This document shows positions 3,440-5,086 of a stretch of DNA of 64,000 nucleotides, in pieces. This DNA is from Escherichia coli (GTDB lineage Bacteria > Pseudomonadota > Gammaproteobacteria > Enterobacterales > Enterobacteriaceae): assembly GCF_051903065.1 (NCBI RefSeq), contig NZ_CP178438.1; one strand, 5' to 3'. Numbering within the stretch: position 1 is the stretch's first letter; every line of letters begins with the position of its first letter. Both the position numbers and the translations under genes were made by a program. Below the pieces are notes generated by a model, which did no database searches, was not told where the DNA came from, and saw only the letters and a list, made by a program, of their open reading frames with translations.

Positions 3440-5086
3440 ATGAATGGCGCACAGTGGGTGGTACATGCGTTGCGGGCACAGGGTGTGAATACCGTTTTCG
3501 GTTATCCGGGTGGCGCAATTATGCCGGTTTACGATGCATTGTATGACGGCGGCGTGGAGCACTTGCTGTGCCGACATGAGCAGGGTGCGGCAATGGCGGC
3601 TATCGGTTATGCCCGTGCTACCGGCAAAACTGGCGTATGTATCGCCACGTCTGGTCCGGGCGCAACCAACCTGATAACCGGGCTTGCGGACGCACTGTTA
3701 GATTCTATCCCTGTTGTTGCCATCACCGGTCAAGTGTCCGCACCGTTTATCGGCACTGACGCATTTCAGGAAGTGGATGTTCTGGGATTGTCGTTAGCCT
3801 GTACCAAGCACAGCTTTCTGGTGCAGTCGCTGGAAGAGTTGCCGCGCATTATGGCTGAAGCATTCGACGTTGCCAGCTCAGGTCGTCCTGGTCCGGTTCT
3901 GGTCGATATCCCAAAAGATATCCAGTTAGCCAGCGGTGACCTTGAACCGTGGTTCACCACCGTTGAAAACGAAGTGACTTTCCCACATGCCGAAGTTGAG
4001 CAAGCGCGCCAGATGCTGGCAAAAGCGCAAAAACCGATGCTGTACGTTGGTGGTGGCGTGGGTATGGCGCAGGCAGTTCCTGCTTTACGAGAATTTCTCG
4101 CTACCACAAAAATGCCTGCCACCTGCACGCTGAAAGGGCTGGGCGCAGTTGAAGCAGATTATCCGTACTATCTGGGCATGCTGGGAATGCATGGCACCAA
4201 AGCGGCGAACTTCGCGGTGCAGGAGTGCGACTTGCTGATCGCCGTGGGTGCACGTTTTGATGACCGGGTGACCGGCAAATTGAACACCTTCGCACCACAC
4301 GCCAGTGTTATCCATATGGATATCGACCCGGCAGAAATGAACAAGCTGCGTCAGGCACATGTGGCATTACAGGGTGATTTAAATGCGCTGTTACCAGCAT
4401 TACAGCAGCCATTAAATATCAATGACTGGCAGCAACACTGCGCGCAGCTGCGTGATGAACATGCCTGGCGTTACGACCATCCCGGTGACGCTATCTACGC
4501 GCCGTTGTTGTTAAAACAACTGTCGGATCGTAAACCTGCGGATTGCGTCGTGACCACAGATGTGGGGCAGCACCAGATGTGGGCTGCGCAGCACATCGCC
4601 CACACTCGCCCGGAAAATTTCATCACCTCCAGCGGATTAGGTACCATGGGTTTTGGTTTACCGGCGGCGGTTGGCGCACAAGTCGCGCGACCGAACGATA
4701 CCGTTGTCTGTATCTCCGGTGACGGCTCTTTCATGATGAATGTGCAAGAGCTGGGCACCGTAAAACGCAAGCAGTTACCGTTGAAAATCGTCTTACTCGA
4801 TAACCAACGGTTAGGGATGGTTCGACAATGGCAGCAACTGTTTTTTCAGGAACGATACAGCGAAACCACCCTTACTGATAACCCCGATTTCCTTATGTTA
4901 GCCAGCGCCTTCGGCATCCCTGGCCAACACATCACCCGTAAAGACCAGGTTGAAGCGGCACTCGACACCATGCTGAACAGTGATGGGCCATACCTGCTTC
5001 ATGTCTCAATCGACGAACTTGAGAACGTCTGGCCGCTGGTGCCGCCTGGCGCCAGTAATTCAGAAATGTTGGAGAAATTATCATGA
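3440..5086 (+). CDS. ilvG: acetolactate synthase II large subunit
   Basis: uninterrupted 548-aa ORF with TPP-enzyme motifs (GDGSFMMN). Confidence 0.92.

Follow-up and report, generated by a model that had tools for sequence, protein, structure and literature searches.

Valine added to Escherichia coli K-12 leads to isoleucine starvation, since acetohydroxyacid synthase II (AHAS II) is absent from this strain. Both the lesion in ilvG and its effects have been textbook knowledge since 1981. When the ilvG frame of MG1655 was restored, the strain grew at 1 mg/ml valine and the polarity on ilvEDA was relieved (PMC8605374). In strains B, W, and Crooks, ilvG is intact, and the literature describes these strains as tolerant to valine (PMC3446290, PMC3032704). 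Intact ilvG outside K-12 is already known and is nothing new. Herein, we analyzed a stretch of 64,000 nucleotides of E. coli DNA (the window). Positions 3440-5086 of the window very probably represent the ordinary wild-type ilvG of a natural non-K-12 isolate, which together with ilvM would encode AHAS II.

Results and Discussion

The ORF listing and a profile match identified ilvG on the + strand at 3440-5086 as an ATG-started ORF of 548 aa for the catalytic (large) subunit of AHAS II. Its product scored 1076.5 bits against the NCBIfam equivalog NF006524 (cutoff 738), with residues 1-547 aligning to profile positions 1-547 of 548. Because this match is full length and above the cutoff, the ORF is not a chance one. 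It is genuine, has the right boundaries, and far exceeds what chance would produce. In 23CRST027, which shares 99.99% identity with the window, PGAP called the same coordinates an intact ilvG CDS (WP_021557359.1). The ORF listing, the full-length NF006524 match, and PGAP agree on the single uninterrupted 548-aa frame that the original prediction had read from the DNA.

The active-site residues of IlvG were inspected individually. E47, F109, Q110, M250, R276, V375, and W464 all lie at the expected positions, and the ThDP/Mg motif GDG(427-429)...N455 is present. We take E47 to be the catalytic Glu, and F109, Q110, M250, R276, V375, and W464 to be the substrate-specificity residues according to AHAS II mutagenesis. 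All nine catalytic and cofactor residues checked were conserved. A PDB sequence search with IlvG returned E. coli AHAS I (6LPI, E = 4e-162) as the closest solved structure by sequence and no chain of E. coli AHAS II.

The gene sits in an operon of intact order, ilvL-ilvX-ilvG-ilvM-ilvE-ilvD-ilvA. At its head, ilvL (3202-3300, + strand) encodes a 32-aa leader peptide rich in Ile/Val/Leu codons (NF007744, 81.9 bits versus a cutoff of 59), and its amino-acid sequence shows no difference from that of K-12 IlvL. The attenuator terminator (3321-3356, + strand) consists of a G+C-rich hairpin at 3321-3348 followed by T8 at 3349-3356. Its DNA is 100% identical to the characterized K-12 attenuator, and RNA folding of the hairpin with T8 gave an energy of -23.3 kcal/mol (z = -3.1). 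A consensus terminator scan found no + strand match at the attenuator, and the hairpin was recovered by strand folding; the miss is probably due to an unpaired C/C position in the stem. The region upstream of the promoter carries about 10 SNPs relative to K-12. A 16-aa small ORF at 3387-3437 (+ strand) corresponds to ilvX, the peptide IlvX in the annotation of 23CRST027, and differs from its K-12 counterpart by one substitution, R11S. Immediately downstream of ilvG, ilvM (5083-5346, + strand) encodes the 87-aa regulatory (small) subunit of AHAS II (NF008362, 132.3 bits versus a cutoff of 68). The start of ilvM overlaps the ilvG stop (ATGA), and its product is full length, with N35K and T80A as its two substitutions relative to K-12 IlvM. 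The downstream operon genes ilvE, ilvD, and ilvA follow at 5366-9757 (+ strand), as annotated in 23CRST027 and collinear with K-12.

For comparison with K-12, the MG1655 locus (NC_000913 3947000-3955000) was used as the reference, whose annotation gives ilvG as a pseudogene of 1645 nt. Pairwise alignment of the window ilvG with MG1655 ilvG gave 31 substitutions and one 2-bp gap. The AT at ilvG nt 977-978 (window 4416-4417) is absent from K-12. The placement of this gap is ambiguous within the K-12 frameshift site at 4416-4419 (+ strand), as the window reads ATAT there and K-12 reads AT. The K-12 frame proceeds through ...QQPLNQ and then meets TGA at nt 982-984, codon 328. This stop position, taken from our alignment, agrees with the published stop-codon coordinates (PMC8605374). 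Neither feature of the K-12-type pseudogene, the 2-bp deletion at nt 977-978 and the TGA at codon 328, occurs in the window. The alignment to K-12 ilvG thus bore out the earlier claim that the K-12 frameshift is missing here, and placed the sole indel between the two loci at the exact known frameshift site. Measured against an in-silico-repaired K-12 gene, the window ilvG shows synonymous changes at 27 codons and non-synonymous ones at 4, the latter being C146S, A222T, S342A, and H494P.

The frequency of intact ilvG was then surveyed in E. coli. A 52-nt probe was placed across the K-12 junction; it has no 28-mer in common with the intact window sequence. Among 5,426 complete E. coli genomes, the probe matched 343, and the identity was at least 99% in 340 of these. 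All genomes among the matches listed are K-12 laboratory derivatives, including MG1655, W3110, DH5alpha, DH10B, BW25113, JM109, XL1-Blue, MC4100, and O16:H48. Match spans were also compared in 60 genomes sampled evenly over the whole ilvG similarity ranking. The ilvG span was 1647 nt in 55 of these 60 genomes and 1645 nt in four, all four being K-12 derivatives. A probe for the intact junction seeded in 1,776 genomes, a figure that is a lower bound for intact ilvG because flanking SNPs (A/G at -5, A/G at +5) block the 28-mer seed elsewhere. Database feature names were unusable for judging intactness, as K-12 derivatives too are labeled "acetolactate synthase 2 catalytic subunit".

The remaining genome of the even sample, NCCP12480 (NZ_CP068680.1), gave a truncated ilvG match arising from an ilvG'-'ilvA deletion fusion (locus positions 3001-5234). 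The deletion starts within ilvG, whose 3' part is lost, spans ilvM, ilvE, and ilvD completely, and extends into ilvA, whose 5' end is missing. This implies that NCCP12480 would be a branched-chain amino-acid auxotroph.

Five ilvG alleles spanning the divergence range (O157:H7 DEC4E, THO-008, Z1002, DEF10, and 30859_5#11) were examined in full. With 94.8-98.7% nucleotide identity to the window, all five encode 548 aa without an internal stop and read ATAT at the frameshift site. They differ from the window by 20-76 synonymous versus 2-7 non-synonymous codon changes, an excess of synonymous changes that reads as the signature of purifying selection on ilvG. The window allele itself is in the minority, with only 262 of 5,426 genomes reaching at least 99% identity. 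At residues 146, 342, and 494, it has S, A, and P, as do most of the other wild alleles sampled, and T222 also occurs in O157:H7. The normal state of the species is an intact ilvG, and the lesion is found in the K-12 lineage only. The framing of the original prediction, which set the intact frame against K-12, therefore needs correction, as all that follows from the finding is that the strain is something other than K-12.

Valine resistance of the strain is a sound prediction from the intact ilvGM genes and control region, orthology, and the literature, and AHAS II enzyme activity and expression of ilvG are likewise predicted. The products of ilvG and ilvM would assemble into AHAS II, the ThDP/FAD/Mg-dependent isozyme that joins pyruvate to pyruvate or 2-ketobutyrate and is free of feedback inhibition by valine. 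Transcription would start at the ilvLXGMEDA promoter, with attenuation at the ilvL leader responding to Ile, Val, and Leu. Excess valine shuts down AHAS I and III, and AHAS II would still be present. With AHAS II present, valine should therefore cause no isoleucine starvation, and growth would be expected on minimal medium containing valine. In K-12, AHAS II was lost by a lineage-specific 2-bp deletion. The earlier expectation that the strain should be valine resistant is supported, as the step from intact ilvGM to resistance is backed by the restored MG1655 (PMC8605374) and by strains B, W, and Crooks; for this particular strain, the phenotype is predicted.

An intact frame could also specify an inactive or unexpressed product, through a missense change or a promoter defect, and so leave the strain valine-sensitive. 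The four residue differences from K-12 and the several upstream SNPs provide material for such a defect, which we nevertheless consider very unlikely. Compared with six other alleles, the substitutions follow a pattern of strong purifying selection, conservation extends to all nine of the catalytic and cofactor positions checked, and the variant residues occur in other wild alleles. In addition, the leader and attenuator are as in K-12, and ilvM is intact. A functional AHAS II thus remains the preferred reading of the locus. No feature of the sequence speaks against an ordinary wild-type ilvG. As for the minority allele, its combination of T222, IlvM K35/A80, and IlvX S11 might slightly alter kinetics or regulation, or might indicate that a tract of the ilv locus was acquired by recombination. 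Either would be a surprise, as nothing in the data points to altered properties or a recombination tract.

The strain background was established from the window as a whole. Its first 25 kb are 100% identical to 23CRST027 and 23CRST031, both from human feces in Ecuador, and to ECNB21-M121, from meat. Over the full 64 kb, 2 mismatches and 6 gap positions separate the window from 23CRST027 (99.99% identity). The window is collinear with K-12 at about 98.3% identity and carries two insertions without a counterpart there, one of about 4.3 kb at 46995-51270 and the other of about 1 kb at 57155-58157. These differences confirm that the strain is not standard K-12, as had been proposed from ilvG, and the source is a natural non-K-12 E. 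coli isolate.

Short repeats such as ATAT are sites at which indel errors are possible, and the intact frame could in principle reflect a sequencing or assembly artefact, namely, a spurious 2-bp insertion in the AT repeat. The chance of this is negligible, as three complete genomes, each assembled independently, contain the identical ilvG sequence, ATAT is found in all non-K-12 alleles examined, and the 1647-nt length prevails in the even sample (55/60).

A K-12 derivative with ilvG restored, either as a spontaneous valine-resistant revertant of the "ilvO"/ilvG2096 type or by engineered repair, would also have an intact frame, and revertants with the full-length ilvG frame restored do exist (PMC8605374). 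In MG1655, the frame is regained when T982 or G983 of the premature TGA is deleted (PMC8605374). The reported revertants thus lose 1 bp of TGA and do not regain ATAT, the sequence found in the window (PMC8605374). Beyond the frameshift site, 31 further ilvG positions differ from K-12, the window as a whole matches K-12 at only about 98.3% identity and contains both insertions, yifN is intact in the window and a pseudogene in K-12, and the near-perfect match (99.99%) is to a human fecal isolate from Ecuador. The divergence over the whole window refutes a K-12 revertant or an engineered ilvG+ K-12, and a restored K-12 gene is extremely improbable.

Other differences from K-12 were observed along the window. 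The insertion of about 4.3 kb at 46995-51270 sits between cyaY and lptM. On its - strand, it contains a 141-aa ORF (47041-47466), for which no Pfam match was found, a DKNYY-family ORF of 431 aa (47454-48749, PF13644), and a second DKNYY-family ORF of 502 aa (48746-50254) with a weak DKNYY match. A DUF3304 gene (50591-51145) in the same insertion is flanked by 175-bp direct repeats that are 92% identical (50163-50336 and 51245-51419). Of 5,426 complete E. coli genomes, 918 contain at least 80% of this island, which is a common variable region. The insertion of about 1 kb at 57155-58157 sits between uvrD and yigE and carries a gene of the SAM hydroxide adenosyltransferase family (57173-58090, - strand, 305 aa; PF01887 and PF20257). 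PADLOC gave no match on either of these two insertions (46995-51270 and 57155-58157).

Two further loci showed differences in coding length. The yifN gene (12853-13302, - strand) is an intact ORF for a 149-aa PemK/MazF-like toxin, and in K-12 it is a pseudogene through a 1-nt deletion at nt 210. Besides ilvG, it is a second gene that is disrupted in K-12 and intact here, and the annotation of 23CRST027 shows no antitoxin gene adjacent to it. The hemX product (40736-41971, - strand) has 411 aa versus 393 aa in K-12, an 18-aa length polymorphism.

Conclusions

The value of the intact ilvG is that of a strain diagnostic only, marking a natural E. coli isolate that is not K-12. In such an isolate, species-typical valine resistance and non-polar expression of ilvGMEDA would be expected. 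Among known systems, the K-12 ilvG pseudogene (b4488; formerly ilvG_1/ilvG_2) is the orthologous locus, with 98.1% nucleotide identity and an identical leader and attenuator. Unlike the window gene, it contains a premature TGA, as a result of which K-12 lacks AHAS II, is sensitive to valine, and shows polarity on ilvEDA. IlvB, the large subunit of E. coli AHAS I (6LPI), belongs to the same ThDP-dependent fold family and catalyzes the same reaction as IlvG. Unlike IlvG, it is part of a valine-sensitive paralogous isozyme whose small subunit is IlvN. The wild-type IlvG of E. coli and Salmonella (NF006524; alleles of B, W, Crooks, and O157:H7) has the same 548 aa and the same position in ilvLXGMEDA. 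It also has the same active-site residues and ThDP motif, and the window gene differs from it by allelic substitutions only.
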